Of a stretch of 64,000 nt of DNA, positions 41,423-60,722 are shown in pieces (within the stretch, counting starts at the first letter, position 1; each line of letters starts with the position of its first letter). The position numbers and the translations under genes are program-made. A model generated the notes under the pieces. That model did not search any database, was not told the origin of the DNA, and saw only the letters and a program-made list of their open reading frames with translations. The DNA is from an uncultured Ruminococcus sp. Its GTDB lineage: Bacteria > Bacillota > Clostridia > RUG12999. The stretch is taken from positions 772-64,771 of the forward strand of contig CACZWD010000001.1 in the NCBI GenBank assembly GCA_902784805.1, written 5' to 3'.

Positions 41423-41450
41423 TGACTTTAAAAAAATCTTGTAGTATAAT
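41423..41450 (+). promoter_or_regulatory. Sigma-A-type promoter for the plus-strand polysaccharide operon
   Basis: TTGACT (41423-41428), a 16-nt spacer, then TATAAT (41445-41450). GGAGG RBS at 41475-41479 precedes the ATG at 41492. Confidence 0.5.
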
Positions 41451-41491
41451 ATATCTGTAAGTTTTTAAATAACCGGAGGTTGTCAAGAAGA

Positions 41492-42538
41492 ATGGACAAG
41501 CTTTTTATGTGCGGCTTTTTTGCGGACGGAAAGAATATTTATAATGGTCAGGCAATAAAAACACATGAAACATATAATTTGCTGAAAGATAAATTCGGAA
41601 AAGAAAAAATTGATTATGTTGATACTTATAATTGGAAAAAACGTCCATTAAACCTTATAAAAAATTTTTTTGTAAAAGCAAAAAAAGCCGGTTACATTAT
41701 TATGCTTCCCGCGCATAACGGCGTTAAAGTTTTTTCGTTGCTGTTACTGATTGCGAAAAAAATATTTAAGTGTAAAATATATTACGATGTTATAGGCGGC
41801 TGGCTGCCCGAAATGACAAAGAAAAACATAAAGCTTGAAAAGCGCCTTAAACGGTTTGACGGCATATGGGTTGAAACAAAAAATATGAAGGCTGCGCTTG
41901 AGAATCAAGGCTTTACGAATATAGGTATAGTGCCTAATTTTAAAAATATAACCCCTCTTAAAGAGGAAGAGCTTATTTTTAATACGGAAAAACCGTTTAA
42001 ATTTTGTTTTTTTGCGAGAGTTACAAAGGAAAAAGGTGTTGAAGAGGCTGTTAAGGCAATTAAAGAAATCAACAAAAAATACGGTAACAATACGGCAGTG
42101 CTTGATATATACGGACCGGTTAATTCTGATTACACCGAAGGTTTTGAAAAACTAAAAGTGAGTTTTGATAAAAGTATAAGGTATATGGGTGTTGTGCCGC
42201 CGGAAAAAAGCGTTGAAACAATTAAAAATTATTTCGCGCTTCTTTTTCCGACAAAATTTTATACGGAAGGCGTCCCGGGTACGATTGTTGACGCTTACGC
42301 GGCAGGCGTCCCGGTTATAACGTCAAGATGGCAAAGCTGCTTTGATATTTTTGAGGAAAACATAACAGGGCGCAGCTTTGAGTTTGAAAATTATGAGGAT
42401 TTTTTTGAAAAATTATCAGAAGCGGTGGGGCAGCCGGAGGATTTTTTAAAAATGAAAAAAAATTGTATTAACTTGTCTGCCTCATACACTCCCGAATACG
42501 CAATAAAAAAAATAGAAAAATTATTTGATAAAAATTAA
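41492..42538 (+). CDS. GT-B fold glycosyltransferase (GT4-like)
   Basis: C-terminal EGVPGTIVDAYAAGVPVITSRWQ matches the E-x7-E region of GT4/GT1 retaining transferases. Confidence 0.65.
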   Translation: MDKLFMCGFFADGKNIYNGQAIKTHETYNLLKDKFGKEKIDYVDTYNWKKRPLNLIKNFFVKAKKAGYIIMLPAHNGVKVFSLLLLIAKKIFKCKIYYDVIGGWLPEMTKKNIKLEKRLKRFDGIWVETKNMKAALENQGFTNIGIVPNFKNITPLKEEELIFNTEKPFKFCFFARVTKEKGVEEAVKAIKEINKKYGNNTAVLDIYGPVNSDYTEGFEKLKVSFDKSIRYMGVVPPEKSVETIKNYFALLFPTKFYTEGVPGTIVDAYAAGVPVITSRWQSCFDIFEENITGRSFEFENYEDFFEKLSEAVGQPEDFLKMKKNCINLSASYTPEYAIKKIEKLFDKN

Positions 42539-42550
42539 GGATGATATGCC

Positions 42551-43459
42551 GTGAGTTTTAATATATATAATCTTAAAAAATGGTATCTTATGCTTACCGG
42601 CAAAAGTATACTTCATGTTGATCAAGATATAGGAAAAATTTTTGAGACAGATAGAATAAAAGGATATTATAACAACCTTACCGATAAAGTTACAATGGAG
42701 CCGGAGCTTTTAACGAATGAGAAATTGCCGGAGCTGAAAACGGAAAGCGGCGAAACAGTTTTTTTCCCCGTCGCTGTTTTTCAATACGGACTTGGCGCGT
42801 ATGACCTTTATTTACAGACGGCGGATAATAAATATATTGATAAATTTAATCAATGTGTAAAGTGGACGATGGCAAATCAAGAAGAAAGCGGCGCTTGGAG
42901 TAATTTTTTCTTTGTATATAAAGATAATCCGTATGGCGCGATGTGCCAGGGAGAAGGAGCGTCGCTGCTTTTAAGAGCGTATAAGGAAACAAATGATGAA
43001 AAATATCTTGAAGCGGCAAGGAAAGCGATAGCCTTTATGCTTAAAGATGTGAAGAACGGCGGTACAACAAGTTATGACGGTGAAGATGTTATTCTTCTTG
43101 AATATACACATTTAAAACCTGTTATGAACGGTTGGATATTTGCTCTTTGGGGGCTTTACGATTTTAATATTGTTTCTCCCGAAGAGGAAAATATTAATGT
43201 CTATGAGAAAACGCTAAATTCTCTTATAAAGTATTTGCCGAGTTTTGACGGCAAATATTGGAGTATGTACGATTTGGATGGTAAAATTGCAAGCCCGTTT
43301 TATCATAACCTTCATATTGCGCAGATGCAGGCTGTGTATAAAATTACAGGTGAGAAAATATTTGCGGATTACGCGGAAAAATGGAAGAACGATAGCAAAA
43401 GCAAGATAAAAAAAGCGAGAGCTTTTGTAAAAAAAGCTTTTCAGAAAATAGCAGAGTAG
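42551..43459 (+). CDS. D-glucuronyl C5-epimerase C-terminal-domain family protein
   Basis: Resembles the (alpha/alpha)6-barrel C-terminal domain of heparosan/glucuronyl C5-epimerases (…GWIFALWGLYDF…YWSMYDLDG…YHNLHIAQMQAVYKITGE). Confidence 0.55.
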   Translation: MSFNIYNLKKWYLMLTGKSILHVDQDIGKIFETDRIKGYYNNLTDKVTMEPELLTNEKLPELKTESGETVFFPVAVFQYGLGAYDLYLQTADNKYIDKFNQCVKWTMANQEESGAWSNFFFVYKDNPYGAMCQGEGASLLLRAYKETNDEKYLEAARKAIAFMLKDVKNGGTTSYDGEDVILLEYTHLKPVMNGWIFALWGLYDFNIVSPEEENINVYEKTLNSLIKYLPSFDGKYWSMYDLDGKIASPFYHNLHIAQMQAVYKITGEKIFADYAEKWKNDSKSKIKKARAFVKKAFQKIAE

Positions 43460-43467
43460 GTTGTTAA

Positions 43468-44565
43468 ATGAAAAGAGTTTTATGTATAGTCGGAGGAATG
43501 AATGCGGGCGGCGCGGAAACATTCCTTATGAAAGTTTACCGCAGACTTGATAAAAATAAATACCAAATGGATTTTGCGGTTGCAAACGATGGCTGTTATG
43601 ATGAAGAAATACGCCTTATGGGCGGAAAAATATTTAAAATAACACCTAAAAGTCAAGGGTTTTTGAAAAATTTTTTGTCGGTGAAAAAACTTGTCAAAAA
43701 CGAGGGGTATAAATATGTTTTGCGTACATCGCAACATTCGCTTTCGGCAATGGAGCTTTTGGCGGCAAGGCTTGGAGGAGCTAAGAAGCTTATTTACAGG
43801 TCAAGTAATTCAAACACAATAGACGGGAGCAAAAAAGGCTTATTATTACATAAATTATGCGGCTTTATGCCGATATTTTTTGCGAATGTGCGTATTGCGC
43901 CTTCAACAGAGGCAGCTGAATTTATGTTTGGAAAAGACTGCGTAAAAAAAGGTAAAGCAACAATTTTAAACAATGGTATTGACATGAGGATTTTTAACTA
44001 TAATGGGCAAAACAGAAACGAATGTCGTGAAGAATTTAAGCTTAAAAATAAGTTTGTTGTAGGTCATATCGGAAGGTTTAGCGCACAAAAAAATCATGAC
44101 TTTTTGCTTGAAATATTTGCTGAAATAAAGAAAAAAAAAGAAGATTCAATCCTTTTAATTGTCGGTGGAGGCGAGCTTGAAGCAGAAATAAAGCAAAAAG
44201 CAAAGGAACTGAATGTTTTTGATAATATAGTTTTTACGGGTGTTCGAAGTGATGTTTCAAAGCTCTTAAGCGCAATGGACGTTTTTGTTTTTCCTTCGTT
44301 TTATGAAGGTATGCCAAACACGGTTATCGAGGCACAGGCAGAAGGACTTCCTTGTATAATATCCGATACAATAACAAAGGAAGCGGATATTACAGGGCTT
44401 GTAAAATATTTGCCACTTGATTTGTCGGCAGAAAAGTGGGCGGACGAAGTTATTGATTGCGTGTCTGCCGAACGCAAAGAAACAAAAGATGATTTTGTAA
44501 AAAATGGATATGATATAGATAGTGTGACAGATAAATTTATACAGTTTGTGTTTGGAGATAAATAA
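43468..44565 (+). CDS. Glycosyltransferase family 4 (GT-B)
   Basis: N-terminal VGGMNAGGAETFL and C-terminal FPSFYEGMPNTVIEAQAEGLPCIISD motifs. Confidence 0.8.
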   Translation: MKRVLCIVGGMNAGGAETFLMKVYRRLDKNKYQMDFAVANDGCYDEEIRLMGGKIFKITPKSQGFLKNFLSVKKLVKNEGYKYVLRTSQHSLSAMELLAARLGGAKKLIYRSSNSNTIDGSKKGLLLHKLCGFMPIFFANVRIAPSTEAAEFMFGKDCVKKGKATILNNGIDMRIFNYNGQNRNECREEFKLKNKFVVGHIGRFSAQKNHDFLLEIFAEIKKKKEDSILLIVGGGELEAEIKQKAKELNVFDNIVFTGVRSDVSKLLSAMDVFVFPSFYEGMPNTVIEAQAEGLPCIISDTITKEADITGLVKYLPLDLSAEKWADEVIDCVSAERKETKDDFVKNGYDIDSVTDKFIQFVFGDK

Positions 44566-45815
44566 TGAAAATAGGAACAAATAAAATACCGAATTATATA
44601 GTAAATGTATTGACAGTTTTTTTATTATTTACATTTACATCACTTAATAAAATCACTTGGGGAAGATACGCTTTTCTCGGAATTACAGCTATTATTTTTG
44701 TGATCTCAGCAAGCACATATTGCGGCGGAGTGAAATTTAGCGTGCAACCGTTTCATATTTTTTTGTTTGCTTTTGCTGTTTATTGCGGTATTTCTTCGTT
44801 TTGGGCCGTAAATCCGGCAATGTCGATATCCGATTTTAAAACAATATGTTCAATACTTATATGCTATTCTGTTATATATGCTCACTATCAAAAAGAAAAT
44901 AGTATTAATGTACTTTTTGATATTATCAAGTATTCAGGATTAGCCGTTGCTTTGTATACTATTTGTTTTTATGGATTAGATGACATGATTATATCGGCAA
45001 GTGATGAAAATTTAAGATTGGGAAATTCTTTTGCAAATGTTAACAATATTGGAGTTGTTATGGCTTTTACAATCATTATGATTTTTAAAAATTTTATTAC
45101 AAAGAGAAATTATAAAGAGCTGCTTTTAATGGCACCTTGTATTGTTGTTATTGCCGCAACACAGAGCAGAAAAGCAATGATAAGTGCAACTTTTGGAATA
45201 TTTTTAATGTTGATTGTGATTAATGAAAAGAATAAAAATTTTTATAAAAGGTTTTTTAAATTCTTTTGTGTTATTGCTATATTTGTTTTTTGTATATATG
45301 CTATTTCAAAGTTTTCAGCGTTTGTTGGCATGTCCGAACGTTTACAAAGTATGCTGGATGCGTTTAACGGAGACAAGGGAGCTGACAGTTCATCACTTAA
45401 ACGTTTGAACATGATACGTTATGGAATAAATAGTTTTAAACAGCATCCGTTTTTTGGGATAGGTATAAAAAACACATATATTATAACCCGAAGATATTGG
45501 GGAGTCAATACATATTTACATAACAATTATGTTGAGCTTTTAGCAGGCGGAGGAATATTTGGTTTCACAATATATTATTCAATATATGTATATCTAATAT
45601 ATAATGTTATAAAGTATAAAAATGTCGACAGAGAAAATTTTGGAGTTTTTACAGTATTATTAATTATTATGCTTGTTCTTGATTACGGCATAGTTACGTA
45701 TTATTCAAAGTTACAATATTTTTATTTTATGATAATGTTTTTACATATTGATTTAGTAAAGAAAAGAGTGGAATGTTTCAGTGAAGATACAAAAAATCCT
45801 CAAAGCGGCATATAA
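44565..45815 (+). CDS. wzy: O-antigen/capsule repeat-unit polymerase (Wzy / O-antigen ligase family)
   Basis: About 12 TM segments with a large loop containing the RxxxxxxxxG-like motif (TQSRKAMISATFG). AT-rich, as usual for wzy. Confidence 0.65.
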   Translation: MKIGTNKIPNYIVNVLTVFLLFTFTSLNKITWGRYAFLGITAIIFVISASTYCGGVKFSVQPFHIFLFAFAVYCGISSFWAVNPAMSISDFKTICSILICYSVIYAHYQKENSINVLFDIIKYSGLAVALYTICFYGLDDMIISASDENLRLGNSFANVNNIGVVMAFTIIMIFKNFITKRNYKELLLMAPCIVVIAATQSRKAMISATFGIFLMLIVINEKNKNFYKRFFKFFCVIAIFVFCIYAISKFSAFVGMSERLQSMLDAFNGDKGADSSSLKRLNMIRYGINSFKQHPFFGIGIKNTYIITRRYWGVNTYLHNNYVELLAGGGIFGFTIYYSIYVYLIYNVIKYKNVDRENFGVFTVLLIIMLVLDYGIVTYYSKLQYFYFMIMFLHIDLVKKRVECFSEDTKNPQSGI

Positions 45816-46698
45816 ATACATATTCAATAAAAATTACAGATTTTTAATAAATTCAGAGTTGCACTTTTACGATAAGATGCCTGATGAAAAATTTTTAAAG
45901 AAAAAGTTTAAAGCTGTTATGGGTAAAGGTCTTGATCTTGAAAACCCAATAACATTTAACGAAAAATTGCAATGGCTTAAGCTTTATGATAGAAAGCCTG
46001 AGTATACTATGATGGCGGATAAGTATGAGGTTAGAAAATATATAGCGAATAGGCTTGGGGAAGAGTACTTAATTCCACTAATTGGCGTGTGGGACAACCC
46101 TGACGATATTGATTTTGATAAGCTGCCTGATAAGTTTGTGCTTAAATGTAATCATAATTCCGGTCTTGGTATGTGTATATGCAAAGACAAATCGAAACTC
46201 AATATAAAAAAGGTTAAAAGAAAATTAAAAAAAGGCTTGAAACAGGATTATTATTTGACGTGTCGCGAATGGCCGTACAAAGAAATTAAGCGTAAAATAA
46301 TTGCGGAAAAATACATGGAGGATAGTACTGGAGAACTTATGGACTATAAATTTATGTGTTTTAATGGAAAAGTTAAATGTATTTTTACCTGTACGGAACG
46401 CTTTGATAATGATGGGCTTAAAGTCACTTTTTTTGATACAAATTGGCGAAAGCTGAATTTCAAACGACATTACCCGACCTCAGAAATAGACATCAGCAAA
46501 CCTGAAAATCTTGATGAAATGATATGTTTTGCGGAAATGCTTTCAAAAGATATTAATTTTTTACGAGTTGATTTTTATAATATTAACGGAAAAATATATT
46601 TTGGGGAATTAACATTTTTTCCTGGTTCGGGTTATGAAGAATTTACTCCCGAAAGTGTTGATGAAGAACTTGGAAATCTTATAAATATAACCGTATGA
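45781..46698 (+). CDS. TupA-like ATP-grasp amidoligase (teichuronopeptide biosynthesis family)
   Basis: …NPITFNEKLQWLKLYDRKP…DKFVLKCNHNSG…IYFGELTFFPGSGYEEF matches the TupA-like ATPgrasp family. The start (GTG at 45781) is uncertain. Confidence 0.65.
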   Translation: MKIQKILKAAYKYIFNKNYRFLINSELHFYDKMPDEKFLKKKFKAVMGKGLDLENPITFNEKLQWLKLYDRKPEYTMMADKYEVRKYIANRLGEEYLIPLIGVWDNPDDIDFDKLPDKFVLKCNHNSGLGMCICKDKSKLNIKKVKRKLKKGLKQDYYLTCREWPYKEIKRKIIAEKYMEDSTGELMDYKFMCFNGKVKCIFTCTERFDNDGLKVTFFDTNWRKLNFKRHYPTSEIDISKPENLDEMICFAEMLSKDINFLRVDFYNINGKIYFGELTFFPGSGYEEFTPESVDEELGNLINITV

Positions 46699-46773: not shown

Positions 46774-47901
46774 ATGAATATTATTATTGGAGCAGATATA
46801 GTGCCGACAAAAACTAATGACGATTTATTTGAGGTCGGAAATGCCGAAGCTTTAATGGAAAATGAGTTAACACATTTTTTGAATACTTCTGATTACCGTA
46901 TATTTAATCTTGAAACGCCTCTTACGGATACAGAGGCGCCCATATCAAAAAACGGACCGAATTTAATCGCAAGCGCAAAATCTGTGAACGGATATAAAGC
47001 TATTGGCGTAAATCTTTTAACCGTTGCAAATAATCATATTATGGATCAAGGCGAGCAGGGTTTTTTTTCAACACTAAAATTACTTAAAAAAAACGGAATT
47101 GATTATGTCGGCGCAGGAGAAAATGTTAGAACCGCAAGAGAACCGTATGTCTTTGAAATTGACAACATAAAAATTGGCGTTTATGCTTGTGCGGAGCATG
47201 AGTTTTCGATAGCAACAGAAAATATGGCAGGCGCAAATCCATTTGAGCCGTTAGATTCTTTTGACCACATCTGTGAGCTTAAACAGAAATGTGATAGAGT
47301 TATTGTTTTATATCATGGTGGAAAGGAACATTACAGATATCCATCACCTTATTTACAGAAGATATGCCGTAAATTTATTGAAAAGGGTGCTGATATTATA
47401 GTTTGTCAGCATAGTCATTGTGTAGGCTGTGAAGAAAAATACCTGCAAGGCACAATAGTTTACGGGCAGGGAAATTTTATATTCGACGCGCAAGATAATG
47501 AGTTTTGGAAAACAAGCCTTTTAATTTCCGTCAATGAAGAATTTAACATAAAATATATACCGTTAATAAAAAAAGGAAACGGTGTGAGATTTGCAAAAAA
47601 AAATGAAGCAAACAACATTCTTGATGGATTTAAAAAAAGAAGTGAGCAGATAAAACAGGCGGGTTTTTTAGAAAAGAAATATGCCGAGTTCGCCAAAGAA
47701 AATATTTATAATTATCTTTTAAACATATCCGGTATAAGGTATAGTTTTTTTATGAGAGTATTAAATAAAATCAGCAGAGGAAAATTTATTGTTTTTTTTA
47801 TAAAGAGAAAATACAAACAAAACAAGGTTTTAAAAATTATTAATTATATGGATTGTGAATCCCACAGAGAGCTTTTTTTAAAAGGTTTGGAAAGTATGTG
47901 A
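46774..47901 (+). CDS. CapA/PgsA-family protein (PGA_cap, metallophosphatase fold)
   Basis: NLETPLTDTE…GVNLLTVANNHIMDQG…VLYHGGKEH…VCQHSHC are the hallmark blocks of the poly-gamma-glutamate CapA family. Confidence 0.7.
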   Translation: MNIIIGADIVPTKTNDDLFEVGNAEALMENELTHFLNTSDYRIFNLETPLTDTEAPISKNGPNLIASAKSVNGYKAIGVNLLTVANNHIMDQGEQGFFSTLKLLKKNGIDYVGAGENVRTAREPYVFEIDNIKIGVYACAEHEFSIATENMAGANPFEPLDSFDHICELKQKCDRVIVLYHGGKEHYRYPSPYLQKICRKFIEKGADIIVCQHSHCVGCEEKYLQGTIVYGQGNFIFDAQDNEFWKTSLLISVNEEFNIKYIPLIKKGNGVRFAKKNEANNILDGFKKRSEQIKQAGFLEKKYAEFAKENIYNYLLNISGIRYSFFMRVLNKISRGKFIVFFIKRKYKQNKVLKIINYMDCESHRELFLKGLESM

Positions 47902-47964: not shown

Positions 47965-48032
47965 AATAAAGTTTCGCACACATGTTGTATTTTATATGAA
48001 TATACGTGCGAAACTTTATTTCGTTTTATATT
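47965..48032. terminator. Bidirectional terminator between the two convergent polysaccharide operons
   Basis: Perfect 15-bp inverted repeat AATAAAGTTTCGCAC (47965-47979) and GTGCGAAACTTTATT (48006-48020) followed by TCGTTTTATATTATTA. Confidence 0.6.
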
Positions 48033-48033: not shown

Positions 48034-49038
48034 TTATGCGTCTTTTTTGATAAGCAGCTTCTTTTTTAAGCAGCCGGATAAAGGCAACTCTATATATTTA
48101 TGTATACAATAAGCAAGAATCATATTTATTGCAAGCAGGGCAATAATAATACATATTGATTGAAAGTTGAATACTTTGATTTTTAAATTATATAGTACGA
48201 GATATGTCACTTTTTGGTGTATTAAATAAAGAGGATATGATATTGCCGATAAAAAAACAAGCGGTTTGTCATATTTAAACTTTATATTTGTTTTCGCGAA
48301 GATAAATATAAGCAGCGCTGAAATTAATACAAATACAGCTTTTGCCGAAACAGGTATAATTAAAGCGAATATAATGGCAATGTTAAAATAAGACAAAAAA
48401 GCTTTTTTGTTTTTTATAATTAACGCGATGGACATACCGATAATAAACTCATGCGCGTGTTCCGCCAAGAATAACACATTGAAAAATGTGTAAAGCCTGC
48501 CGGCGAACACCATTTTACCGAACAATTTATATATTATAACCACAAACAGCCATAACGTATTTATTTTTTCAATATGTTTTATCAGTTTCAGTTTAATCAG
48601 TCCGGCAATTATTAATGAAAAACCGACTTCATAAAGCAACGTCCAATAAACGCCGTCAACACAAGGCGTCATCAAAAATTCCTGCAGCATTGTAAAATTT
48701 ATCAGCGTAGGTATGACACCGATAAAACTTGCTTTATCAAGTAAAACTGTAAAAATTGTGGTGAATATTATCCCAAACCAATATGCGGGATAAAGACGTA
48801 TAGCTCTTTTTAAAAGAAAATTAGAAGCTTTTGTATCGGATTTCATATTATTAATAACAAGATACCCCGTTATCATGAAAAATACAGCCACAGCCCAGCA
48901 GCCCCACCACAAACCTATGTGGTTTTTTTCGTGTTCAAGCCCGATATATGAGTCCCACTATCTGACGGTATAGTGATATAAGGCGATAAACACGGCGCAT
49001 ATACCGCGAATATAATCAAGACCATATATTTTTTTCAT
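48034..49038 (-). pseudogene. Acyltransferase family 3 (O-acyltransferase) gene interrupted by a single in-frame TAG
   Basis: Reading from the ATG at 49038 gives MKKIYGLDYIRGICAVFIALYHYTVR-TAG-WDSYIGLEHEKNHIGLWWGCWAVAVFFMITGYLV…. This is the canonical acyltransferase-3 N-terminus continuing in the same frame into the ORF-track ORF 48034..48912. Only the TAG at 48958-48960 breaks it. Confidence 0.7.
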
Positions 49039-49081: not shown

Positions 49082-50155
49082 TTAATATAAATATTTCAAG
49101 AAATTATATTTTTGACTGAGTTTTATTATAATAAATGAAATGACGCCGCAAATTAACAGTGTACTAAAAAATAAAATGGTACATTTATATATTGAATGTA
49201 TATCATAATTTGCAGAAATATATTTGTTTAAAAGAATCATTATAGAACCATGGGAACAATATATAATTGTCGAAGTTTTTCTAAATATGGTATAAATCGG
49301 CTTATATTCAAGCGGTATTTTTAAGCATAAAATAAGTAATGAAGCCGATAACAATGGTAACATCATACAGGTTGTTCCCGATTTCGGCATATAATCTGTC
49401 GTGGTATAAAACAGCAAAAAAATCTCCGCAGCGGTTAAAATAAATAAGAAAGTAAATATAATTAATGCTTTTTTTACGGAGATATTAATACTTTCTTCAT
49501 GCTCTGCTATGATTTTACCTATAACAAAAAATATCAAAGCAAACGGGAAAGATATATAAAACGTTCCCCAATAGTGATTTATAAGATCAAATATTTTATT
49601 TAAGTGTTCTCCTGTCAAAAAATTATAGTAAGTCATAAGAAGACATATAATATAACAGAAAACAGCGATACCGATTGCAAGGCGGTTTTTGCCTTTATCT
49701 GTTTTACAGGCGAAAAACAAAAGTATAGCATCTATGATGCATGCCATTAAAAACCAGGAAGCGGGAAAGCCGTTGCCGAGTATAATATCACGAATAAGAA
49801 TAATAAACGATTTTAAAGACATATTATTTGGAAATCCGAGTTTAAACACCGCTACATAAACACCGTTTAACAAAAACCATACCGAATATAGTATAAACAG
49901 ACGTTTACAGTAATTAAAAACTCTCATGTGCGGCTCGGGACTTTTTTTCATCCCTCTGAATAAAAAATAACTGCTGGTTACAAAGAAAAACGGAACGGCT
50001 ATTCTGCAAATTACAAATATAATAAAAACGTAACCATAGCCATAAACAGAATTTTGGCGCAGAGAAAAATTACCGACCTGACAAGAATGTAACAAAATTA
50101 TAAGAATCGAAAAAACAAATTTTAAAATGTCTATTGATGCGTTTTTACTTTTCAT
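49082..50155 (-). CDS. Acyltransferase family 3 (membrane O-acyltransferase)
   Basis: N-terminal IDILKFVFSILIILLHS and 10 TM segments. Confidence 0.75.
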   Translation of the reverse strand: MKSKNASIDILKFVFSILIILLHSCQVGNFSLRQNSVYGYGYVFIIFVICRIAVPFFFVTSSYFLFRGMKKSPEPHMRVFNYCKRLFILYSVWFLLNGVYVAVFKLGFPNNMSLKSFIILIRDIILGNGFPASWFLMACIIDAILLFFACKTDKGKNRLAIGIAVFCYIICLLMTYYNFLTGEHLNKIFDLINHYWGTFYISFPFALIFFVIGKIIAEHEESINISVKKALIIFTFLFILTAAEIFLLFYTTTDYMPKSGTTCMMLPLLSASLLILCLKIPLEYKPIYTIFRKTSTIIYCSHGSIMILLNKYISANYDIHSIYKCTILFFSTLLICGVISFIIIKLSQKYNFLKYLY

Positions 50156-53945: not shown

Positions 53946-55886
53946 TTATAAATTAAAATGCTCAACTATCCTTTTACAATTATTATTATCTCTGAAATCG
54001 TCCATCTTATATAGCAAAGCATTGCGTTCATCTTTATAATCATCTATATCTTTGTACACTGTGTCAAGAAAATCAAAGAGTTCTGCGTTTGTTTTAATTT
54101 TTTGTCCCGGCATATAATCATAGACATTATCCATTATAAAGCCTCTTTTATATACATCTATATCGTTAATAAAGAAGCCTATTGGTTTGTTCATCTGCAA
54201 GAAATCAAAGCTTACAGACGAATAGTCTGATAACATAGCGTCTGCATACCCTATCATTTCATACAACTGCAAATTAATATCTAAAAGATTATCATCTGTT
54301 AAATATAAAATATTGGATAGCAAAACTCGTTTCATAAAATCTAATGTCTGAAGATGGTGTACTTTAACAATCATTAACATTTTTTTGTTTTTGAGAAATT
54401 CGTTTAGTTCTTGCAATTCATCTTCATTTGATATTGTGTTTATTGAATAGATATTAAGAAACTCACCGTCCGTCCAGTATTTTGCTTGTCTAAAAGTTGG
54501 CATACACAGAATAATTTTTTGATATGTATCCTCACTTATATATTTTGATAATTTTTTCTTTATATCTATAGTTTTATACATCAAATCAAGCCTCGGTCTA
54601 CCTATGACAAGCATTTGTTCATCTTTTGCTCCCATAGCTTTAGAATACAGTTGTTTTGACCATTCTGACGATATACAATGAAAGTTTAAAAAACCGCTTA
54701 AGTCTTTACCAGCACCTTTTAATGGGATTCCATGTGACAAAGTCACAACTGTCTGATCTTTCTTCCATTTTTTCAGCCACCATGGATGCGTAAAAAAGAA
54801 ATATCTGGCTCTTGCAACATAATACCTAAGTCTTATGCTTTCATAAAAATTTGTAGGTGAAATAAATACAACATTTTCCATATTCATTTTCTTGAATCTG
54901 TTTATATTCTGTACCTTCCACACAAATCTGTATTTCTTATTATAGCCATGCTCGATCATGTATTCGAACAATGCTCTGCCATTATCACAAAAGTCACCCT
55001 CGGTTTCAAAAAACAGGGTATTGTTCGTTTTTACAATTTTAGGCATAACGGAAGAAATTATATTCATACTAAATTTTATCGCATAATTCTTTGATTTTGA
55101 AACAAGCTTCTTTAAAAATCCGACAAAGCCAACTTTCATTAGTAACAATCGTAATCTGTTTCTTCTGTACCATTTTTTGTATTTTTGTCTTCCTAATGTA
55201 CCCCCATATTTGCTATAATAATATTTCTGTTTTTTTAGATAAAGGTTTTCGAGACTTCCAAACCATGAGCCATTAAAATGATGTATTGAGACTGTGTTGT
55301 CCGTAAGTGCTATATTTCCGGTTTCATAACTTTTTGGACAAAAATAATCCTTCGGATACATAGTCAGAATACCCTCAATATTTTGATATGTATTATTGAG
55401 TTCTATATTATATTTTTCCTTTGTCATATTTGTTATTGTGATAACGTTGGTTGTATTGTCAAAGGTGCCGTCGGGTTTTACGAAATGTCTGTCATCATAG
55501 TATGATAAAAGATAGCCTACCCATTCGCCGTGGTTTTCCGACCCCATAAGGGCGGTGGGAATATGGGTTTCATCCTCAAAACCCGAAAAAGCGGTACAGC
55601 TTAAAAAGCTGTCGGGACTTTTTATAAGCTCGACATCGGTATCCATATAAAGACCGCCTTCGTTATATAAGGCGTAAAGTCTTACATAGTCCGTTATGAA
55701 CGCCCATTTTTTGTTTTCATATGCTTCCCGTACATATGTATTTGAATTTACATCAAAGTTTTTTTCGTTCCATTCCTTTATCTCATAATCGGGACAATAT
55801 TTTTTCCAGCTTTCTATATATCGTTTGGTTTCCTCCGGAAGAGGATTTCCACCAAACCAGCAATAGTGTATTATTTTTGGTATCAT
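53946..55886 (-). CDS. Fusion of a GT32-like DXD glycosyltransferase domain with a TagB/TagF-like CDP-polyol phosphotransferase domain
   Basis: N-terminal 230 aa: IIHYCWFGGNPLPE…YVRLYALYNEGGLYMDTDVEL (Gly_transf_sug/Caps_synth type). C-terminal about 400 aa has the Glyphos_transf architecture (…VTLSHGIPLKGAGKD…MLSDYSSVSFDFLQMNKPIGFF). Confidence 0.7.
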   Translation of the reverse strand: MIPKIIHYCWFGGNPLPEETKRYIESWKKYCPDYEIKEWNEKNFDVNSNTYVREAYENKKWAFITDYVRLYALYNEGGLYMDTDVELIKSPDSFLSCTAFSGFEDETHIPTALMGSENHGEWVGYLLSYYDDRHFVKPDGTFDNTTNVITITNMTKEKYNIELNNTYQNIEGILTMYPKDYFCPKSYETGNIALTDNTVSIHHFNGSWFGSLENLYLKKQKYYYSKYGGTLGRQKYKKWYRRNRLRLLLMKVGFVGFLKKLVSKSKNYAIKFSMNIISSVMPKIVKTNNTLFFETEGDFCDNGRALFEYMIEHGYNKKYRFVWKVQNINRFKKMNMENVVFISPTNFYESIRLRYYVARARYFFFTHPWWLKKWKKDQTVVTLSHGIPLKGAGKDLSGFLNFHCISSEWSKQLYSKAMGAKDEQMLVIGRPRLDLMYKTIDIKKKLSKYISEDTYQKIILCMPTFRQAKYWTDGEFLNIYSINTISNEDELQELNEFLKNKKMLMIVKVHHLQTLDFMKRVLLSNILYLTDDNLLDINLQLYEMIGYADAMLSDYSSVSFDFLQMNKPIGFFINDIDVYKRGFIMDNVYDYMPGQKIKTNAELFDFLDTVYKDIDDYKDERNALLYKMDDFRDNNNCKRIVEHFNL

Positions 55887-57427
55887 ACCTTAGCACCTTT
55901 CATTAAAAGCTTATTTTTAAGAATCTCACGTTCGTGTTTGTCGAGCATTATGAAGTAATTTATCACGCATGCCCCAATACCCATCAGTGCAATATCCAAA
56001 AGCAGCAGTATCCAACTGTTTATCGGTATCAGCATTTTTATGCCTAAAGCTAATACACTGACTATTGCTACAGAAATAATATTTTTGAGTATCAGAGGGA
56101 AAAAGGTGTGCCATTTGAAGCCGAGACATACGGCTCCATACACCGGCAAAAATGTCAGAGCGCGTATTATACTCATTATTGTGCTTACGCCAACCACTAT
56201 GTACATTTTCATATTCTCATCGGTAGTGTGTGTTAAAAGTATAAATACCAAAAGAGTCGATACACATGCATTCATAAGCAAAAATAGTGAAGACTGCCTT
56301 ACCTTGTTTGCGACGGTAAAAATATTCCACAAGGGTTCAAGCGACAAAGAAAATATGAATGCCCCTGCACCGAGTATCGATAACCGCTGAAGAAGGACGG
56401 CATCCTGCGTAGGCAACCAAAGAGCATAAAATTCCCTGCTGTACACATATAAAAAAGCCACAGGTATGCAGGCAAAAAAACCGAGTAACTTGATCGCAGA
56501 GTTAAGCTGCTGCCTTATATCCTCAAAATCATTTTTGGCATAGCTTATGGTAAGCTGCGGCGCAAATACGCTTGCAATCATTCCGAAAACTGATAAAATC
56601 TGCGTGGACAAGGTTTTGGAAATAGATACCGTTCCCATTGCCGAAACGCCAACAAAGAGGTTTGTTATGAGCAAATCTAATCCTGTTGAGAGAGTTCCGC
56701 TTAATTTTGAAATGCTGTTCCACATACCTGACATGATGAGCGTCTTTATTTTGCCAAGATCAAGATATTGTTTTTTAATTTTTACTGTCGGCAACAATTT
56801 TTTGGTATAATAAAAATTTATTGCAATTACGTACAATCCGCATACTAATGTTGAAATTCCCAGATACCATATATGCGGTTTAAAAAACATAAATGCGAAT
56901 ATAAGTATGACTACCTTTATAGCATTTGATTCAATATTTCTGAGTGAAGCCAGATAAAGCTTGTTTTTTGCAAATGTTGCCACGTTCAAAACATTACCAA
57001 TCAAACTCAATAAAAAGTTTGCAAAAAGCAACGCCCACAAAAGAGTAACATCACCAAGTATGTTTTTTGGCACATTTATAATTTTATCCAGGAATACTAA
57101 AACAAATACAGCCAATATAGTCAGTACTGATGACACAACTGCGTTTGCAGCTATAATAGAGGTAAAGAACCTATTGGTATCTTCGTATTCTTCTCTATGT
57201 ATACTTATGGTGATAAACCGTCCTGCCATTGAGTTTAACGCTGTTGTAATTATTGTAGCGTAGCTTATAAAATTATTTGCAAGCCCTACAAAACCATACG
57301 CCTCACGTCCTATATGCTTAACGATATATGGCGTTAGAAAAAAGCTTATGCAGACATTAATTCCAAAAGCAATTATTTGAGCTGCCATATTTATTGCAAG
57401 CTGCTTGTTTTTGTTCATTTTATCCAT
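55883..57427 (-). CDS. wzx: Oligosaccharide repeat-unit flippase (Wzx, MOP superfamily)
   Basis: 14 predicted TM segments, polysaccharide-biosynthesis-protein family N-terminus. Confidence 0.75.
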   Translation of the reverse strand: MDKMNKNKQLAINMAAQIIAFGINVCISFFLTPYIVKHIGREAYGFVGLANNFISYATIITTALNSMAGRFITISIHREEYEDTNRFFTSIIAANAVVSSVLTILAVFVLVFLDKIINVPKNILGDVTLLWALLFANFLLSLIGNVLNVATFAKNKLYLASLRNIESNAIKVVILIFAFMFFKPHIWYLGISTLVCGLYVIAINFYYTKKLLPTVKIKKQYLDLGKIKTLIMSGMWNSISKLSGTLSTGLDLLITNLFVGVSAMGTVSISKTLSTQILSVFGMIASVFAPQLTISYAKNDFEDIRQQLNSAIKLLGFFACIPVAFLYVYSREFYALWLPTQDAVLLQRLSILGAGAFIFSLSLEPLWNIFTVANKVRQSSLFLLMNACVSTLLVFILLTHTTDENMKMYIVVGVSTIMSIIRALTFLPVYGAVCLGFKWHTFFPLILKNIISVAIVSVLALGIKMLIPINSWILLLLDIALMGIGACVINYFIMLDKHEREILKNKLLMKGAKV

Positions 57428-57455: not shown

Positions 57456-58517
57456 TCAACCTTTTAAAGATGTAATTACAGAAAGTATTTTTTGCAAAAC
57501 AAAAACCTTTTTATCGCAGATTTTTCTGTAAAAAATCCATACTTTCAAGTAATATTTCAATCCACGCAAATTATATACTTTAAATGGAGAACAGAGTGAC
57601 TTTTTAAGCCAGCCTTTTACCGAACAAACAACATCCTTTTCGGTTACCTGCTCATTAAATATATATGCGGCATCTTCAAAAGAAGCAGCTTTTAAAAACT
57701 CATTCATAATAATCTGAGTAAAGATAAAATTTTCTTTTTTACCTAATTTAAAACCTCTTTTTTCGGCATATGCCTTAAAATCGTAACAAAGATTTATAAT
57801 TCTTTTAAATGGTAATTCTTTTATTGAGTTCATAATGGAGGTTTTACGTAAAGGATAATGATACAATATATCTTTAATAACCACTAATTTTTTCTGATAA
57901 AGCGCAACACGCAAGGCAAACGATAAATCCTCGGCAAAAATCACCTTATTATTCGCAAAAATAATACCGTTATTTTTTATAATATTTGCTCTGAAAAATC
58001 TGTTACAAGCGTTCCAGCCCGTCTTGCAATAATTAACCGCTATTTCTTCAATATAATCAAGTTTTTCGTTCGCCTTCTCGGTATAATATTCCAAAGGCTT
58101 AAATTTTGTTGCAAACAGTAAATTTCCGGCTTCGTCCTCTTTATAATAATTGAATACTACAATATCACATTTTTTTTCCTCACATACCTTCACGCAAATT
58201 TCTATTAAATTTAATTCAATATAATCATCGGGGTCATAGAAAAAAATATAATCCCCTTTTACTGCTTTTAATCCTGCGTTGCGGGCATCTGATAATCCGC
58301 CGTTTTTTTTATGTATAACCTCAATTCTGCTGTCAACGTTTTTATAGCTTTCGCATATACTATATGAATTGTCCGTTGAACCGTCATCGACCAATATTAT
58401 CTGAAGATTTTTATAGGTCTGATTTATGGCAGCATCAATACTTCTTTGTATATAATTCTCAACATTGTATATAGGAAGAATTAAACTGACTAAACCGGTA
58501 TTATCCATTTTTTTCAC
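57456..58517 (-). CDS. Glycosyltransferase family 2 (GT-A)
   Basis: SLILPIYNVENYIQRSIDAAINQTYKNLQIILVDDGSTDNS. Confidence 0.85.
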   Translation of the reverse strand: MKKMDNTGLVSLILPIYNVENYIQRSIDAAINQTYKNLQIILVDDGSTDNSYSICESYKNVDSRIEVIHKKNGGLSDARNAGLKAVKGDYIFFYDPDDYIELNLIEICVKVCEEKKCDIVVFNYYKEDEAGNLLFATKFKPLEYYTEKANEKLDYIEEIAVNYCKTGWNACNRFFRANIIKNNGIIFANNKVIFAEDLSFALRVALYQKKLVVIKDILYHYPLRKTSIMNSIKELPFKRIINLCYDFKAYAEKRGFKLGKKENFIFTQIIMNEFLKAASFEDAAYIFNEQVTEKDVVCSVKGWLKKSLCSPFKVYNLRGLKYYLKVWIFYRKICDKKVFVLQKILSVITSLKG

Positions 58518-59484
58518 TTCGCAATCTTTTTTGTTTTTTTAAAAATTCAATCGTTTTTTCGGTCGGGTAAGGAAATATATATGAAATGCAGGCTCTTAAG
58601 ACTTTTTTTACGGGTACACCGCGAAGTATATTAAAAGAAAAGTTTGTTCTGTATACCTTAACCAATTCCTTATATTTTTCCTTTGCACCCTCTTGCTTAC
58701 GGCATTTGCTGTATTCGGTCACAGCGTAATAAAGCCCGCTTGTTAGGCAACTGAATATTAAAAAATTCGGACAATTTTCACTGATATAGTATGATGCTCG
58801 CTGAAAAAAAGATTCGGCACGATCAACCATATTTTTTATAACAATTTTTGTATTCATTATACTACCCGAACGGTTAACATAGTAGTATAATCTATCAGAT
58901 AAACAAACAACACATTTTGTGTGCAGCATTACTTTGTGAATAACAAATGTATCTTCATATAATCTGCCCTTGGGGTAACGTAAGTTGTTAAAAATATTTT
59001 TTATATACAATTTATTCCATGCAACAGTCCAATGTACATTTGGAGGAGGATTAAAAAGAAAATCTCTTCCTGACATTACCGTATCAGATTGTACGCTGCT
59101 ATAATCATATGTGTCATCAATAACTTTAACTACATTACAGACTGCTATCTCCGCATTGTTTTCTTTAAGTGATTTATAAAGCTTTTCATACATATCGGGC
59201 GCGATATAATCATCACTGTCAACAAAACCTATATATTCTCCTGTTGCTTTATCAATTCCCGCATTTCGGGCATCTGACAGACCGCCGTTTTCTTTATGTA
59301 TAACAACAACTCTGTCATCTTTTTCTGCATACTCATCACATATTATTCCGCAATTATCCGGCGAACCGTCATCAACAAGGATAACCTCAATATTTGAATA
59401 TGTTTGCGCTAAAATACTGTCAACACATTTATGTATATAGGGCTCAACATTATACACAGGCACAATGATGCTTATTTTTTCCAT
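58501..59484 (-). CDS. Glycosyltransferase family 2 (GT-A)
   Basis: SIIVPVYNVEPYIHKCVDSILAQTYSNIEVILVDDGSPDN. Confidence 0.85.
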   Translation of the reverse strand: MEKISIIVPVYNVEPYIHKCVDSILAQTYSNIEVILVDDGSPDNCGIICDEYAEKDDRVVVIHKENGGLSDARNAGIDKATGEYIGFVDSDDYIAPDMYEKLYKSLKENNAEIAVCNVVKVIDDTYDYSSVQSDTVMSGRDFLFNPPPNVHWTVAWNKLYIKNIFNNLRYPKGRLYEDTFVIHKVMLHTKCVVCLSDRLYYYVNRSGSIMNTKIVIKNMVDRAESFFQRASYYISENCPNFLIFSCLTSGLYYAVTEYSKCRKQEGAKEKYKELVKVYRTNFSFNILRGVPVKKVLRACISYIFPYPTEKTIEFLKKQKRLRSEKNG

Positions 59485-59504
59485 AGAAATTCCATCCTTT
59501 AAGT

Positions 59505-60455
59505 TTATCTAAGATATTTATCTCTTAACCTGTAATATATATATTTTAAATAATCGCCTGTGTAATATTTGATACGTTCGTTTATTTCCGCTCGTGCGTT
59601 ATATGGGTTTATTTCTTTTATTGTATTGACAGAAGGAAGTTCTGCGTCGGGTTTAGCCGTAAAACCGCCGGGACCAATATAAAAGGCGTTACAGTCTTCC
59701 GAAATAGTTTCTTTAAAATCTCGCTTTTTGAAATGTATATATATATATTCATCCTTAAAGCATTTTTTATGCTTATAATAGGCTCTGAACACTTTACCAT
59801 TCTGCCAGTAAAATAACTGTTTATTATAATTATTTAAACAAAAAGCCAATTTAAAACGCTTGTATGCGGATGATATGTCCGCAAATACGAGCTTTTTATA
59901 TATTTTAAAATTATTAAAATTATATAATCTATAAATTCCGGACCATTCGTCAAAACCATATATTGCTTCATTTTCAAACACAGTTTTATAGTCGTGCATA
60001 CTGCCGAAAAGTTTATATCTGTTATTTACTTCTTTGGTATTTCTGTAAAGTGAAAGATGACCGAGGGAAAGTATCTTATCATATTCACTCAAAATATTTT
60101 CCGTGATAAATCCGCGGATGTCGCCAAAAATCAAATCAAAATCACAATGTCCCCAGAAGTCATAGCCGGATAAATAGTCTTCAAAAATATTTCCATATAC
60201 TACTTTAAAATCACAGCATTTATAAGGTTTATATAACGCTGTGTCCAATCCGAGCTTTTCATCGGCAAGCTTTTTCATTTCCTGTAATGTCATGGGGATA
60301 TGCTTAACATTTGGAGGTAAATTATCAATTTTATTATCTCCGAAAATTATGAAGTCAATGTCCGGATTATAGGAACAGGATTTTAACCATAAATTAATGT
60401 ATTCAGGCAATTTACCGAAATAAACACCTATAATACATATTGTAGTCCTATTCAT
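59505..60455 (-). CDS. Capsule-locus protein of unknown family, possibly a DXD-type glycosyltransferase
   Basis: Soluble about 316-aa protein with a CDFDLIFGD acidic motif, first gene of the minus-strand operon. Start set at the ATG at 60455 with an AGGGGGA RBS. A TTTACA-17-TATAAT promoter on the minus strand at about 60497-60530. Confidence 0.35.
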   Translation of the reverse strand: MNRTTICIIGVYFGKLPEYINLWLKSCSYNPDIDFIIFGDNKIDNLPPNVKHIPMTLQEMKKLADEKLGLDTALYKPYKCCDFKVVYGNIFEDYLSGYDFWGHCDFDLIFGDIRGFITENILSEYDKILSLGHLSLYRNTKEVNNRYKLFGSMHDYKTVFENEAIYGFDEWSGIYRLYNFNNFKIYKKLVFADISSAYKRFKLAFCLNNYNKQLFYWQNGKVFRAYYKHKKCFKDEYIYIHFKKRDFKETISEDCNAFYIGPGGFTAKPDAELPSVNTIKEINPYNARAEINERIKYYTGDYLKYIYYRLRDKYLR

Positions 60456-60722
60456 GGATAAGCAAGTCCCCCTTCTGTAAAATGAAAAAGCCCGGAGTTC
60501 TGTTTTTTTAATTATAAAACGGCTAAAATTTTTGTGTAAAAATAACAAATTATTAAAACTAACCGGCTGTATAATTTACATAATCTATTTTATTTTACCA
60601 TACTTTTAGAAATAAAGCAATAGTTTTTTTAAAAAATATGCAATTTCAGAACGAACTATACTAAAAAAATTAAAACAGAATAAAAATATACGAGATAAGG
60701 TGCTTTTTCAGCAGAAAAAATA

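Follow-up and report, generated by a model that had tools for sequence, protein, structure and literature searches.

A strain-variable surface-glycan cassette of an uncultured Ruminococcus that joins a TupA–PGA_cap module to a cytidylyltransferase–aldolase-like fusion module

Which cell-surface polymer is encoded by a ~19-kb block of glycan genes in the genome of an uncultured Ruminococcus species, and is the block as unusual as its mix of enzyme families suggests? The block occupies positions 41423-60560 of a 64,000-nucleotide stretch of contig CACZWD010000001.1 (assembly GCA_902784805.1), hereafter the window, and was described in the original prediction as an accessory locus of two convergent operons. 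The region is a strain-variable, horizontally exchanged surface-glycan cassette. With moderate confidence, we favour the view that it is a single cassette of widely circulating modules, making a Wzx/Wzy-type, lipid-linked cell-surface glycopolymer: module A (two GT4 glycosyltransferases, a Wzy-type protein, a TupA-like ligase, a PGA_cap protein and a flippase) is joined to module B (an IspD::aldolase-like fusion, a 2-hydroxyacid dehydrogenase and a TagF-like transferase). All families were checked by Pfam profile searches, and the hidden Markov models confirmed 16 of 16 assignments.

The cassette has a guanine plus cytosine (GC) fraction of 0.334, compared with 0.423 in the left and 0.426 in the right flank, and 1-kb windows give 0.334 ± 0.030 inside (n = 19) and 0.424 ± 0.023 outside (n = 44), which bears out the lower GC content previously noticed by eye. 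Exchange within the species is documented by contig L003, which carries an identical ArgR. Its 96.2 % match to the window runs from ArgR up to the DUF6625 stop codon (window 59506), where it ends. L003 keeps the ArgR-RecN-AzlCD-DUF6625 flank, with a DUF6625 that is 96 % identical, next to an alternative cassette (L003 3734-10695) encoding LicD, a plain IspD of 241 aa, two TagF-type proteins, an acyltransferase-3 (AT3) protein and an NAD-epimerase. Since L003 shares the flank but not the cassette, the cassette has been swapped within the species, with DUF6625 as the anchor gene; DUF6625 is of low GC, yet part of the conserved flank and not of the swapped section. The contig shows the right-hand junction only, the left junction of the alternative cassette lying off its end. 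Sister species (76-79 % ArgRS identity) keep the order RodA-MurI-DUF1934-ArgRS-CoaX-ECF, followed by unrelated genes, and synteny comparison finds no glycan locus at this position in them. The expectation of conserved flanks around a variable middle therefore holds within the species, at the right junction seen in L003, but not in the sister species, where the conserved block ends after the ECF gene. The GC dip, the swap in L003 and the lack of the cassette in sister species together sustain the proposal of an accessory, horizontally exchanged locus. No direct or inverted repeats, tRNA genes or mobile-element traces were found at the cassette borders.

The same cassette, at an identity of at least 99.95 %, is present in three further metagenome assemblies (ERZ27280356, ERZ28613006 and ERZ1029115). 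Contig L003 comes from assembly ERZ1029114, and the window's cassette type is also found in the consecutively numbered ERZ1029115. In sample ERZ28613006 the assembly breaks inside DUF6625, where contig L001 ends at window position 60009 and contig L010 starts at 60063 with a 55-nt overlap; this is the assembly-graph branch that would be expected if a single rumen sample contained strains that differ in their cassettes. The closest ArgRS relatives belong to metagenome-assembled genomes (MAGs) named 'Bacillota bacterium' (79 %) and 'Clostridia' or 'Monoglobales' (~65 %), and the names of samples and matches suggest an origin from ruminants and other gut environments. A sister-species contig, L097, encodes large SLH-domain proteins (1725-4613 and 16248-16868) beside the syntenic ArgRS block. 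They suggest an S-layer-bearing envelope in the lineage, which bears on the choice between a wall polymer and an S-layer glycan.

Module A comprises genes of the plus-strand operon together with the flippase of the minus-strand operon; the C5-epimerase-like gene that lies among the former is included in the list.

41492..42538, plus strand: GT4 glycosyltransferase GT4a (Glycos_transf_1, 64.6 bits; 348 aa on an identical contig)
42551..43459, plus strand: D-glucuronyl C5-epimerase-like protein, 302 aa, soluble (PF06662, C5-epim_C, 143.7 bits)
43468..44565, plus strand: GT4 glycosyltransferase GT4b (Glyco_trans_1_4, 103.9 bits)
44565..45815, plus strand: Wzy_C-family membrane protein (PF04932, 73.0 bits; ~8-10 hydrophobic segments)
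45781..46698, plus strand: TupA-like ATP-grasp amidoligase, 305 aa (PF14305, 246.8 bits, profile positions 1-240 of 241)
46774..47901, plus strand: soluble protein of the PGA_cap (CapA/PgsA/MslH) family (PF09587, 171.5 bits)
55883..57427, minus strand: Wzx-type flippase (PF01943, Polysacc_synt, 39.6 bits against a cut-off of 28.2; ~12-14 hydrophobic segments)

This set recurs widely. The PGA_cap family is large, with members of ~375 aa and 56-65 % identity, and in the 80 metagenome loci that were fetched around PGA_cap genes a TupA homologue (37-69 % identity) is found 62 times. Upstream sequence of 1 kb or more is available for 62 of the loci, and in 36 of these the TupA gene ends, on the same strand, less than 400 nt before PGA_cap; homologues of GT4a (27-48 %) precede the Wzy-TupA-PGA_cap core in 18 of the 80. 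The 53 loci of 7 kb or longer usually show the order GT4 - Wzy - TupA - PGA_cap - flippase, with TupA in 50, the GT4b family (H2) in 40, directly before Wzy, the Wzy family (H3) in 39 and a flippase of ~500 aa in 48. Their accessory genes include UDP-glucose dehydrogenase (Ugd) in 13 and NAD-dependent epimerase in 23, as well as pyruvyl transferases, and 11 of the loci begin with a small Bac_transf primer. The Wzx of the window clusters with family H4, found behind PGA_cap in 26 loci; since it belongs to a family that normally follows PGA_cap, both operons of the window appear to serve one pathway. Where DUF6625 is present (eight unrelated loci: L112, L137, L140, L150, L151, L159, L161 and L174), it directly follows PGA_cap, and the co-directional order elsewhere is GT4-Wzy-TupA-PGA_cap-DUF6625-...-Wzx. 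The convergent layout of the window is best explained by what looks like a single inversion of the second half, from DUF6625 through AT3: the two convergent operons of the original description look like one co-directional locus with an inverted second half.

Among TupA-like enzymes of glycan pathways only one is biochemically defined, the C-terminal domain of Cj1438 from C. jejuni (Cj1438C). It amidates the C6 carboxylate of glucuronic acid (GlcA) on the growing glycan with serinol phosphate or ethanolamine phosphate, the phosphate then being stripped from the product by the phosphatase Cj1435 (PMC11800379). Because of this analogy and the association of related loci with Ugd, an amidated uronic acid in the repeat unit, as originally predicted, is well supported. 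Neither the PGA_cap protein nor the ligase nor the C5-epimerase-like protein contains a hydrophobic segment in a 19-mer scan, so all three would act in the cytoplasm on the lipid-linked unit.

PGA_cap, the constant partner of the ligase, has MslH as its only sequence match in the PDB and its only match in NCBIfam (66.5 bits against a cut-off of 700). The closest fold to its AlphaFold2 (AF2) model (predicted local distance difference test score, pLDDT, 84.7) is again MslH, with an E-value of 5e-17 and a template-modelling (TM) score of 0.62-0.64, followed by phosphoesterases (E ~3e-8, TM ~0.4). The family-invariant residues D8, E47, N87, H88, D91, H213 and H215 align with the dyads His88/Asp91 and His295/Asp11 and the ligands Glu44/Asn87 of MslH (PMC10406935). 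No lasso-peptide genes were found at the locus. PgsB/CapB and PgsC/CapC are absent from the window, and no recurrent family annotated in the 53 related loci corresponds to them. CapA and PgsA are membrane-anchored. Attachment of a peptide or polyglutamate was considered and rejected, the window having no PgsB or PgsC and its PGA_cap protein no membrane anchor; the original proposal of a peptide-bearing, teichuronopeptide-like polymer thus fails for want of these or any other peptide-forming genes, and the closest solved relative of the unanchored PGA_cap protein is an epimerase, MslH.

The C5-epimerase-like gene is an add-on specific to this locus, being found in none of the 159 related loci examined. 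Its product consists of the catalytic C-terminal barrel only and aligns with the zebrafish and human Glce structures 4pw2 and 6hzz, with an 'EY' and a 'YH' kept at the positions of Glce E499, Y500 and Y578, residues that reportedly have catalytic roles. A separate alignment with a human Glce sequence and the alignment with the PDB sequences gave the same result. The conservation of these residues makes the suggested epimerization of GlcA to iduronic acid (IdoA) plausible. Short C5-epim_C proteins in O-antigen and capsular polysaccharide loci, among them a 302-aa protein of Ruminococcus sp. 18P13, have been listed as candidate bacterial epimerases, and type-specific polysaccharides with L-IdoA are known from Butyrivibrio and C. 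perfringens (Raedts et al. 2011, PMC3068255). A characterized bacterial member, from Bermanella, is reported to act on polymer-bound GlcA (Raedts 2013). The protein described here resembles the listed ones in its ~300-aa length, its restriction to the barrel, its place in a type-specific glycan locus and its occurrence in a member of the Clostridia, while its activity and substrate are predicted and no Ugd is encoded in the window.

Module B is encoded on the minus strand:

53946..55886, minus strand: GT32 (Gly_transf_sug) fused to a TagF-like CDP-alcohol phosphotransferase (PF04488, 60.2 bits; PF04464, 149.9 bits, 7-363 of 367)
52141..53880, minus strand: TarI/IspD-type cytidylyltransferase fused to a DRE-TIM (HMGL-like) aldolase-like domain, 579 aa (PF01128, 145.9 bits; PF00682, 68.8 bits)
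51210..52163, minus strand: D-isomer-specific 2-hydroxyacid dehydrogenase (PF02826 and PF00389, 127.6 + 71.9 bits)

The TagF-like C-terminal half of the first protein (53946-55046) matches TagF (3l7i), Cps3D (8qoy) and TarL (8va1) in the PDB. It adjoins the IspD-type cytidylyltransferase, which supports the predicted phosphodiester-linked substituent derived from a cytidine diphosphate (CDP) precursor. TagD/GCT, for CDP-glycerol supply, is absent at the locus, and the sole cytidylyltransferase there is the fusion protein. The fusion family has more than 120 cluster representatives of 63-75 % identity and near-constant length, carried by Oscillospiraceae, Lachnospiraceae, Prevotella, Paludibacteraceae, Treponema and Kiritimatiellia MAGs; it thereby spans Bacillota, Bacteroidota, Spirochaetota and Kiritimatiellia, with 64-75 % identity across phyla, and its database names cover the N-terminal domain only. 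Both halves have invariant residues: the P-loop G9, G10, G12 and R14 together with K22 and K220 in the N-terminal half, and R251, D252, E282 and the HxH ligands H437 and H439 in the DRE-TIM half. The latter is most similar to 4-hydroxy-2-oxovalerate aldolases and resembles pyruvate aldolases more closely than acetyl-CoA synthases (E-values in the PDB 3e-12 versus 1.7e-5; NCBIfam 89.8 versus 47.9 bits), and its closest PDB entry is 3dxi, a structural-genomics 'putative aldolase'. Acetyl-CoA synthase chemistry for this domain, having the weaker similarity, is accordingly ranked below a predicted aldolase chemistry. The dehydrogenase stays below every NCBIfam equivalog cut-off (phosphoglycerate dehydrogenase, PGDH, 151.7 against 454), and its closest PDB entries are PGDH and glyoxylate, glycerate and 2-ketogluconate reductases.

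The partners of the fusion were surveyed in 31 GTDB loci that carry it and in 48 loci that carry stand-alone relatives of its aldolase-like half. A 2-hydroxyacid dehydrogenase occurs in 31 of 31 fusion loci, mostly adjacent to the fusion, compared with 1 of 48 stand-alone loci. A LicD (20) or TagF-type (12) transferase is present in 27 of the 31, the remaining four being cut off or containing unclassified open reading frames (ORFs), and AT3 in 18, often between fusion and dehydrogenase; the HAD phosphatase count is 0/31 and that of CTP_transf_3 is 1/31. The stand-alone relatives (37-46 % identity, ~527 aa) keep other company: CTP_transf_3, the CMP-Kdo/CMP-sialate cytidylyltransferase family (Kdo, 3-deoxy-D-manno-octulosonic acid), in 28 of the 48 loci by tblastn (36 of 46 by clustering) and sometimes fused to the aldolase-like domain, a HAD phosphatase in 17, an MptE/Maf-like transferase in 14, and sometimes PfkB kinases or NeuB. 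These relatives look like a pyruvate-aldolase-based route to a CMP-activated ulosonic acid. They are found in Lachnospiraceae, possibly in flagellin glycosylation islands, in Oscillospiraceae and in Campylobacterota, and 3dxi appears to belong among them; stand-alone or CTP_transf_3-fused forms (loci L042-L090, for example L052 10760-12350 and L076 10004-12316) have NeuB neighbours in Campylobacterota. The combination of synthase, phosphatase and CMP activation in the stand-alone loci suggests, by analogy, that enzymes of the DRE-TIM clade join pyruvate to a phospho-aldose and so form 2-keto-3-deoxy acid phosphates. A phosphonate pathway, in which HMGL-like enzymes also occur, was considered and rejected, there being no phosphoenolpyruvate mutase.

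From these associations we infer that the product of the fusion and the dehydrogenase is a phospho-hydroxyacid in CDP-linked form, probably a 3-deoxyaldonate. The scheme for the whole cassette, whose substrates, order of steps and polymer class are predicted from families, synteny, variability and partner statistics, would run as follows. Module A would build and polymerize a uronic-acid repeat unit, and its soluble ATP-grasp ligase would amidate the uronic-acid carboxylate on the cytoplasmic side. PGA_cap would complete the amidation, either by removing phosphate from a phospho-amine, as Cj1435 does, or by epimerizing an amino acid, like MslH, and the C5-epimerase-like add-on may turn some GlcA into IdoA. 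In module B, the DRE-TIM domain would condense pyruvate with a phospho-aldehyde or aldose phosphate into a 2-keto-3-deoxy acid phosphate, the 2-hydroxyacid dehydrogenase would reduce the 2-keto group, and the TarI-like domain would convert the retained phosphate to a CDP-diester, before or after reduction. Either order is conceivable given the precedent of CDP-6-D-glucitol, in whose synthesis the cytidylyltransferase comes first, with a keto-sugar phosphate as its substrate, and the reductase works on the resulting CDP-linked compound (PMC10918830). The TagF-like domain would move phospho-X, the activated unit, onto the glycan, the AT3 proteins would O-acylate it, and the two GT2 proteins, the GT32 domain and DUF6625, with its predicted GT-A fold, would add further sugars.

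In kind, the locus is a variable Wzx/Wzy-type surface-glycan cassette with a predicted teichoic-acid-like phosphodiester decoration, comparable with several known systems. Wzx/Wzy glycopolymers of streptococci and enterococci include pneumococcal teichoic acid (TarI/TarJ, LicD and a Wzy-like polymerase) and the Epa decorations of E. faecalis. These systems share with the present locus a lipid-linked unit, Wzx-type flipping and, as predicted for the Wzy_C protein, polymerization of the Wzy type, and likewise an IspD/TarI-type CDP-alcohol and phosphodiester installation of the LicD/TagF type. However, the locus lacks TarJ and has the DRE-TIM fusion, the 2-hydroxyacid dehydrogenase and genes for uronate amidation; owing to the fusion, the dehydrogenase and the lack of TarJ, the alcohol is probably an acid and not ribitol. 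TarI/TarJ and Bcs1 make CDP-ribitol. HS5.18/HS5.17 make CDP-6-D-glucitol (PMC10918830). These CDP-alditol pathways similarly combine a cytidylyltransferase with an NAD(P)H reductase on an open-chain keto-sugar phosphate to yield a phosphodiester building block, but here the reductase is a D-2-hydroxyacid dehydrogenase, the cytidylyltransferase carries an additional DRE-TIM domain for C-C bond formation, and the predicted product has a carboxylate.

The pathways of Kdo, KDN (2-keto-3-deoxy-D-glycero-D-galacto-nononic acid) and sialic acid follow the logic of synthase, HAD phosphatase and CTP_transf_3 cytidylyltransferase. The stand-alone aldolase-like relatives share this arrangement, which is the basis for the proposed 2-keto-3-deoxy-acid synthase role, whereas the branch of the window would keep the phosphate, reduce the keto group and form a CDP-diester at the far end instead of a CMP-glycoside. 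The C. jejuni HS:2 glucuronamide pathway (PMC11800379) resembles module A in having a TupA-like ATP-grasp enzyme in a surface-glycan locus and a dedicated second enzyme that completes the step. It differs in that the ligase here is a stand-alone 305-aa protein partnered by PGA_cap and not by a HAD phosphatase, with no supply genes for serinol phosphate or ethanolamine phosphate, and in that export here is of the Wzx/Wzy type. The PGA_cap protein belongs with MslH, the epimerase of the C-terminal Trp of a lasso peptide (PMC10406935), and with CapA/PgsA in PF09587, and it keeps the MslH dyads; unlike these proteins, it has no lasso-peptide or PgsB/PgsC genes beside it, is soluble and has a TupA ligase as its partner. 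The C. jejuni capsule, by contrast with this locus, is exported by an ABC-transporter pathway.

A number of observations weigh against the scheme. The aldolase half lies below all NCBIfam aldolase cut-offs (NF006049 89.8 against 229; TIGR03217 85.1 against 286), and the His that follows RDG in DmpG-type enzymes, where it is the catalytic base, is replaced by an invariant Ile255 in the fusion family; the reaction of the aldolase-like domain may therefore differ. No gene for a DmpF partner (acetaldehyde dehydrogenase) was found. The N-terminal half passes NF001183 (D-ribitol-5-phosphate cytidylyltransferase; 220.2 bits, cut-off 166), a result that would fit plain CDP-ribitol, and either this or an acetyl-CoA-dependent product is possible as the identity of X. 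The residues shared by PGA_cap and MslH recur generally in the calcineurin-like fold, and no family member other than MslH has a solved structure. PF04932 also holds ligases and O-oligosaccharyltransferases, and the Wzy_C protein may accordingly be a polymerase or a ligase, and the product of the locus a capsular or wall polymer or a glycan on proteins. One acyltransferase gene is dead. The 64-kb window encodes no priming phosphoglycosyl transferase (Bac_transf/WecA) detectable by profile searches or by tblastn with a Bac_transf protein, no Ugd (UDPG_MGDP_dh) and no LCP ligase, and no window ORF belongs to a chain-length regulator family (Wzz/CpsCD), so that function relies on genes outside the window. 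A 449-aa ORF suspected of being Ugd turned out to be a MurD-like ligase. The presence of a Wzx and a Wzy-type gene and the lack of a primer and a chain-length regulator in the window are as first described. Finally, the surveyed loci were picked by conserved peptide patterns, extend 8-10 kb to either side and are mostly MAG contigs, and the co-occurrence counts stem from tblastn and BLAST clustering with coverage thresholds of 50-60 %.

The two modules were found together in 0 of the 159 related loci: the fusion is in none of the 80 PGA_cap loci, and the 31 fusion loci contain no PGA_cap homologue and a single TupA homologue. The mix is thus unusual as a whole combination, as had been claimed, but not in its parts, the GT4-Wzy-TupA-PGA_cap-flippase core being common and the fusion family conserved. 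This separation in nature would also fit two operons with two products, an amidated uronic-acid polysaccharide from the plus strand and a teichoic-acid-like phospho-polymer from the minus strand, each operon having its own promoter-like site and TagF-like enzymes such as Cps3D and TarL being able to polymerize. We consider this improbable, as there is a single flippase and a single Wzy-type gene, placed on different operons, the Wzx is of the family that normally stands directly behind PGA_cap, which puts part of module A on the minus operon, and no ABC transporter for a TagF-type polymer is present. That the locus makes an oligosaccharide to be O-linked to proteins (S-layer, pilin or flagellin), with Wzy_C as ligase or oligosaccharyltransferase, is in our judgement equally improbable. 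This reading would draw on the breadth of PF04932, which spans O-antigen ligases, O-oligosaccharyltransferases and polymerases, on the only NCBIfam match of Wzy_C, a 'putative O-glycosylation ligase' below cut-off, on the SLH-domain S-layer proteins near the syntenic block in the sister species and on the missing chain-length regulator; against it, the locus has neither a target-protein gene nor a second Wzy_C gene, and the core often lies within typical exopolysaccharide loci with Bac_transf, Ugd and pyruvyl transferases. Decay or loss of function of the cassette in this strain seems very unlikely: despite the nonsense codon in one AT3 gene and the lack of a primer and Ugd in the window, all 15 remaining ORFs are intact and sit close together, their starts and stops overlapping, independent samples share the locus at 99.95 % identity or more, and primers and Ugd are often encoded elsewhere.

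Turning to the individual steps, the fusion might make CDP-ribitol or another ordinary CDP-alditol for a ribitol-phosphate decoration, its aldolase-like domain and the dehydrogenase only feeding or regulating precursors. The NF001183 score and all database names of the family agree with this, LicD and TagF are the customary users of CDP-ribitol and CDP-glycerol, and the alternative cassette of L003 has its plain IspD together with LicD and TagF. Nevertheless, neither the locus nor the set of recurrent families annotated across the 31 fusion loci includes a TarJ-type alcohol-dehydrogenase reductase; the 31 loci all have a D-2-hydroxyacid dehydrogenase instead, a family that acts on 2-keto acids; the invariance of the DRE-TIM residues across phyla argues for a required catalytic step; and relatives of the aldolase clade feed cytidylyltransferases of the CMP-ulosonate type. 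A CDP-alditol is, on this balance, unlikely, though somewhat less so than the two-product and protein-glycan readings. For the PGA_cap step, a Cj1435-like metallophosphoesterase, an MslH-like epimerase yielding a D-amino-acid amide and a non-catalytic partner of the ligase come into question, a choice to which we attach an even chance. The role of CapA/PgsA in poly-gamma-glutamate systems is itself unsettled, which leaves room for the non-catalytic partner. A phosphoesterase would suit the calcineurin-like fold and the C. jejuni ligase, whose phosphorylated amines call for a phosphatase afterwards; an epimerase would suit the fold ranking, in which MslH is by far the closest structure, the retained His/Asp dyads and Glu/Asn ligands, and a motif I without the His of two-metal phosphoesterases (V10 invariant). 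By sequence the two enzymatic roles look alike, and the MslH equivalog cut-off is missed widely. The single-cassette reading with modules A and B is the one we retain.

The remaining genes of the minus-strand operon are:

59505..60455, minus strand: DUF6625, predicted GT-A (DXD) glycosyltransferase, the cassette-edge anchor (PF20330, 308.8 bits)
58501..59484, minus strand: GT2 glycosyltransferase GT2a (PF00535, 157.8 bits)
57456..58517, minus strand: GT2 glycosyltransferase GT2b (PF00535, 125.6 bits)
50152..51216, minus strand: acyltransferase-3 AT3a (PF01757, 90.2 bits)
49082..50155, minus strand: acyltransferase-3 AT3b (PF01757, 73.6 bits; ~10 hydrophobic segments)
48034..49038, minus strand: acyltransferase-3 pseudogene AT3c (in-frame TAG at 48958-48960)

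DUF6625, originally noted as a 'DXD protein', belongs to a family of 3,495 representative clusters in which D105-x-D107 is invariant. Its AF2 model (pLDDT 96.6) retrieves retaining GT-A folds as the best Foldseek matches, namely GT6 ABO transferases, GT8 glycogenin/LgtC and LARGE1, with a probability of 1.0 and a TM of only 0.3-0.4, and the protein is, judging by this model, a probable glycosyltransferase of an unclassified family. GT2a and GT2b are paralogues with a 268-nt stretch of 67-68 % identity. Of the three acyltransferase-3 genes originally counted, two are intact and make the predicted O-acylation plausible, whereas the third is a pseudogene. The true ATG of AT3c is at 49038 (MKKIYGLDYIRGICAVFIALYH...), the stop codon follows at 48958-48960 and the ORF restarts at a TTG at 48912, with the loss of 26 residues including the conserved Arg/His motif of the first transmembrane segment (TM1); contigs L010 and L011, which are 100 % identical, carry the TAG as well. 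Homologues of AT3a (36-40 %) adjoin the fusion in nine loci.

The following signals accompany the operons, which extend over 41492-47901 (plus) and 60455-48034 (minus) and whose starts at 41492 and 60455 were reproduced by independent gene calls on identical metagenome contigs:

41422..41450, plus strand: promoter-like site TTGACT-17-TATAAT before the plus operon (11/12 consensus positions, top-ranked; consensus match only)
60511..60540, minus strand: promoter-like site TTTACA-18-TATAAT before the minus operon (11/12 consensus positions; consensus match only)
47965..48020, no strand assigned: shared hairpin between the convergent operons (perfect 15-bp stem; z = -4.0, -5.7)

The stem of the hairpin, recognized from the start as shared by both operons, pairs 47965-47979 with 48006-48020 and extends to arms of 22 nt. 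Its folding energy is -22.1 kcal/mol on the plus strand (z = -4.0) and -19.3 kcal/mol on the minus strand (z = -5.7), none of 200 shuffled sequences being as stable, and its U-rich tail is good on the plus and poor on the minus strand. Adjacent genes overlap by 23 nt between the fusion and the dehydrogenase (52141-52163, minus), by 35 nt between Wzy and TupA (45781-45815, plus) and by 4 nt at 50152-50155 and 55883-55886 (both minus), which is consistent with translational coupling; the start of the dehydrogenase differs between gene callers (309 aa versus 317 aa).

Both flanks were found as described, with a glycine riboswitch and an AGCS symporter on the left and AzlD, AzlC, RecN and ArgR on the right. 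The riboswitch (41156-41261, minus; 62 bits) is the sole Rfam match found. The mechanical ORF of the symporter (39522-41339, minus, 605 aa) spans it, whereas the called gene (39522-41069, 515 aa) starts at 41069, so that the riboswitch falls in the 5' leader. The rest of the window is made up of housekeeping genes, including MreBCD, MinCDE, PBPs, RodA, MurI, ArgRS, CoaX, ScpAB and others. Unrelated to the glycan locus, a 659-aa protein with a Cu_amine_oxidN1 ('copper amine oxidase N-terminal-like') match only is encoded at 1170-3149 (plus); next come two genes of a split chromate transporter and one for a heavy-metal P-type ATPase.

Taken as a whole, the locus is ordinary in kind, and its novelty lies in the chemistry proposed for module B and the role of the TupA–PGA_cap pair, of neither of which a description was found in the searchable literature. 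Tentatively, and with clearly less assurance than for the cassette as such, the fusion and the dehydrogenase could form a previously undescribed route to a CDP-3-deoxy-aldonic acid phosphate that LicD or TagF would install, as an acidic unit of teichoic-acid-like phosphodiester type, on the surface glycans of gut and rumen bacteria in at least four phyla. The stand-alone relatives could form a pyruvate-dependent, NeuB/KdsA-free route to CMP-ulosonates, and the TupA–PGA_cap pair could make uronic-acid amides of D-amino acids or of dephosphorylated amines.

Surface glycans govern phage susceptibility, host immune recognition and niche competition in anaerobes of the gut and rumen, and most of their chemistry is obscure because the organisms are uncultured. 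Two conserved and widely transferred modules are at present mislabelled as 'D-ribitol-5-phosphate cytidylyltransferase' and 'poly-gamma-glutamate capsule protein'. If module B supplies a new CDP-activated hydroxyacid, it would add a new class of building block to teichoic-acid-type polymers and correct thousands of annotations. If the PGA_cap protein partnered with TupA is a phosphatase or an epimerase, this would be the first clear biochemical role for the non-poly-gamma-glutamate majority of its family.

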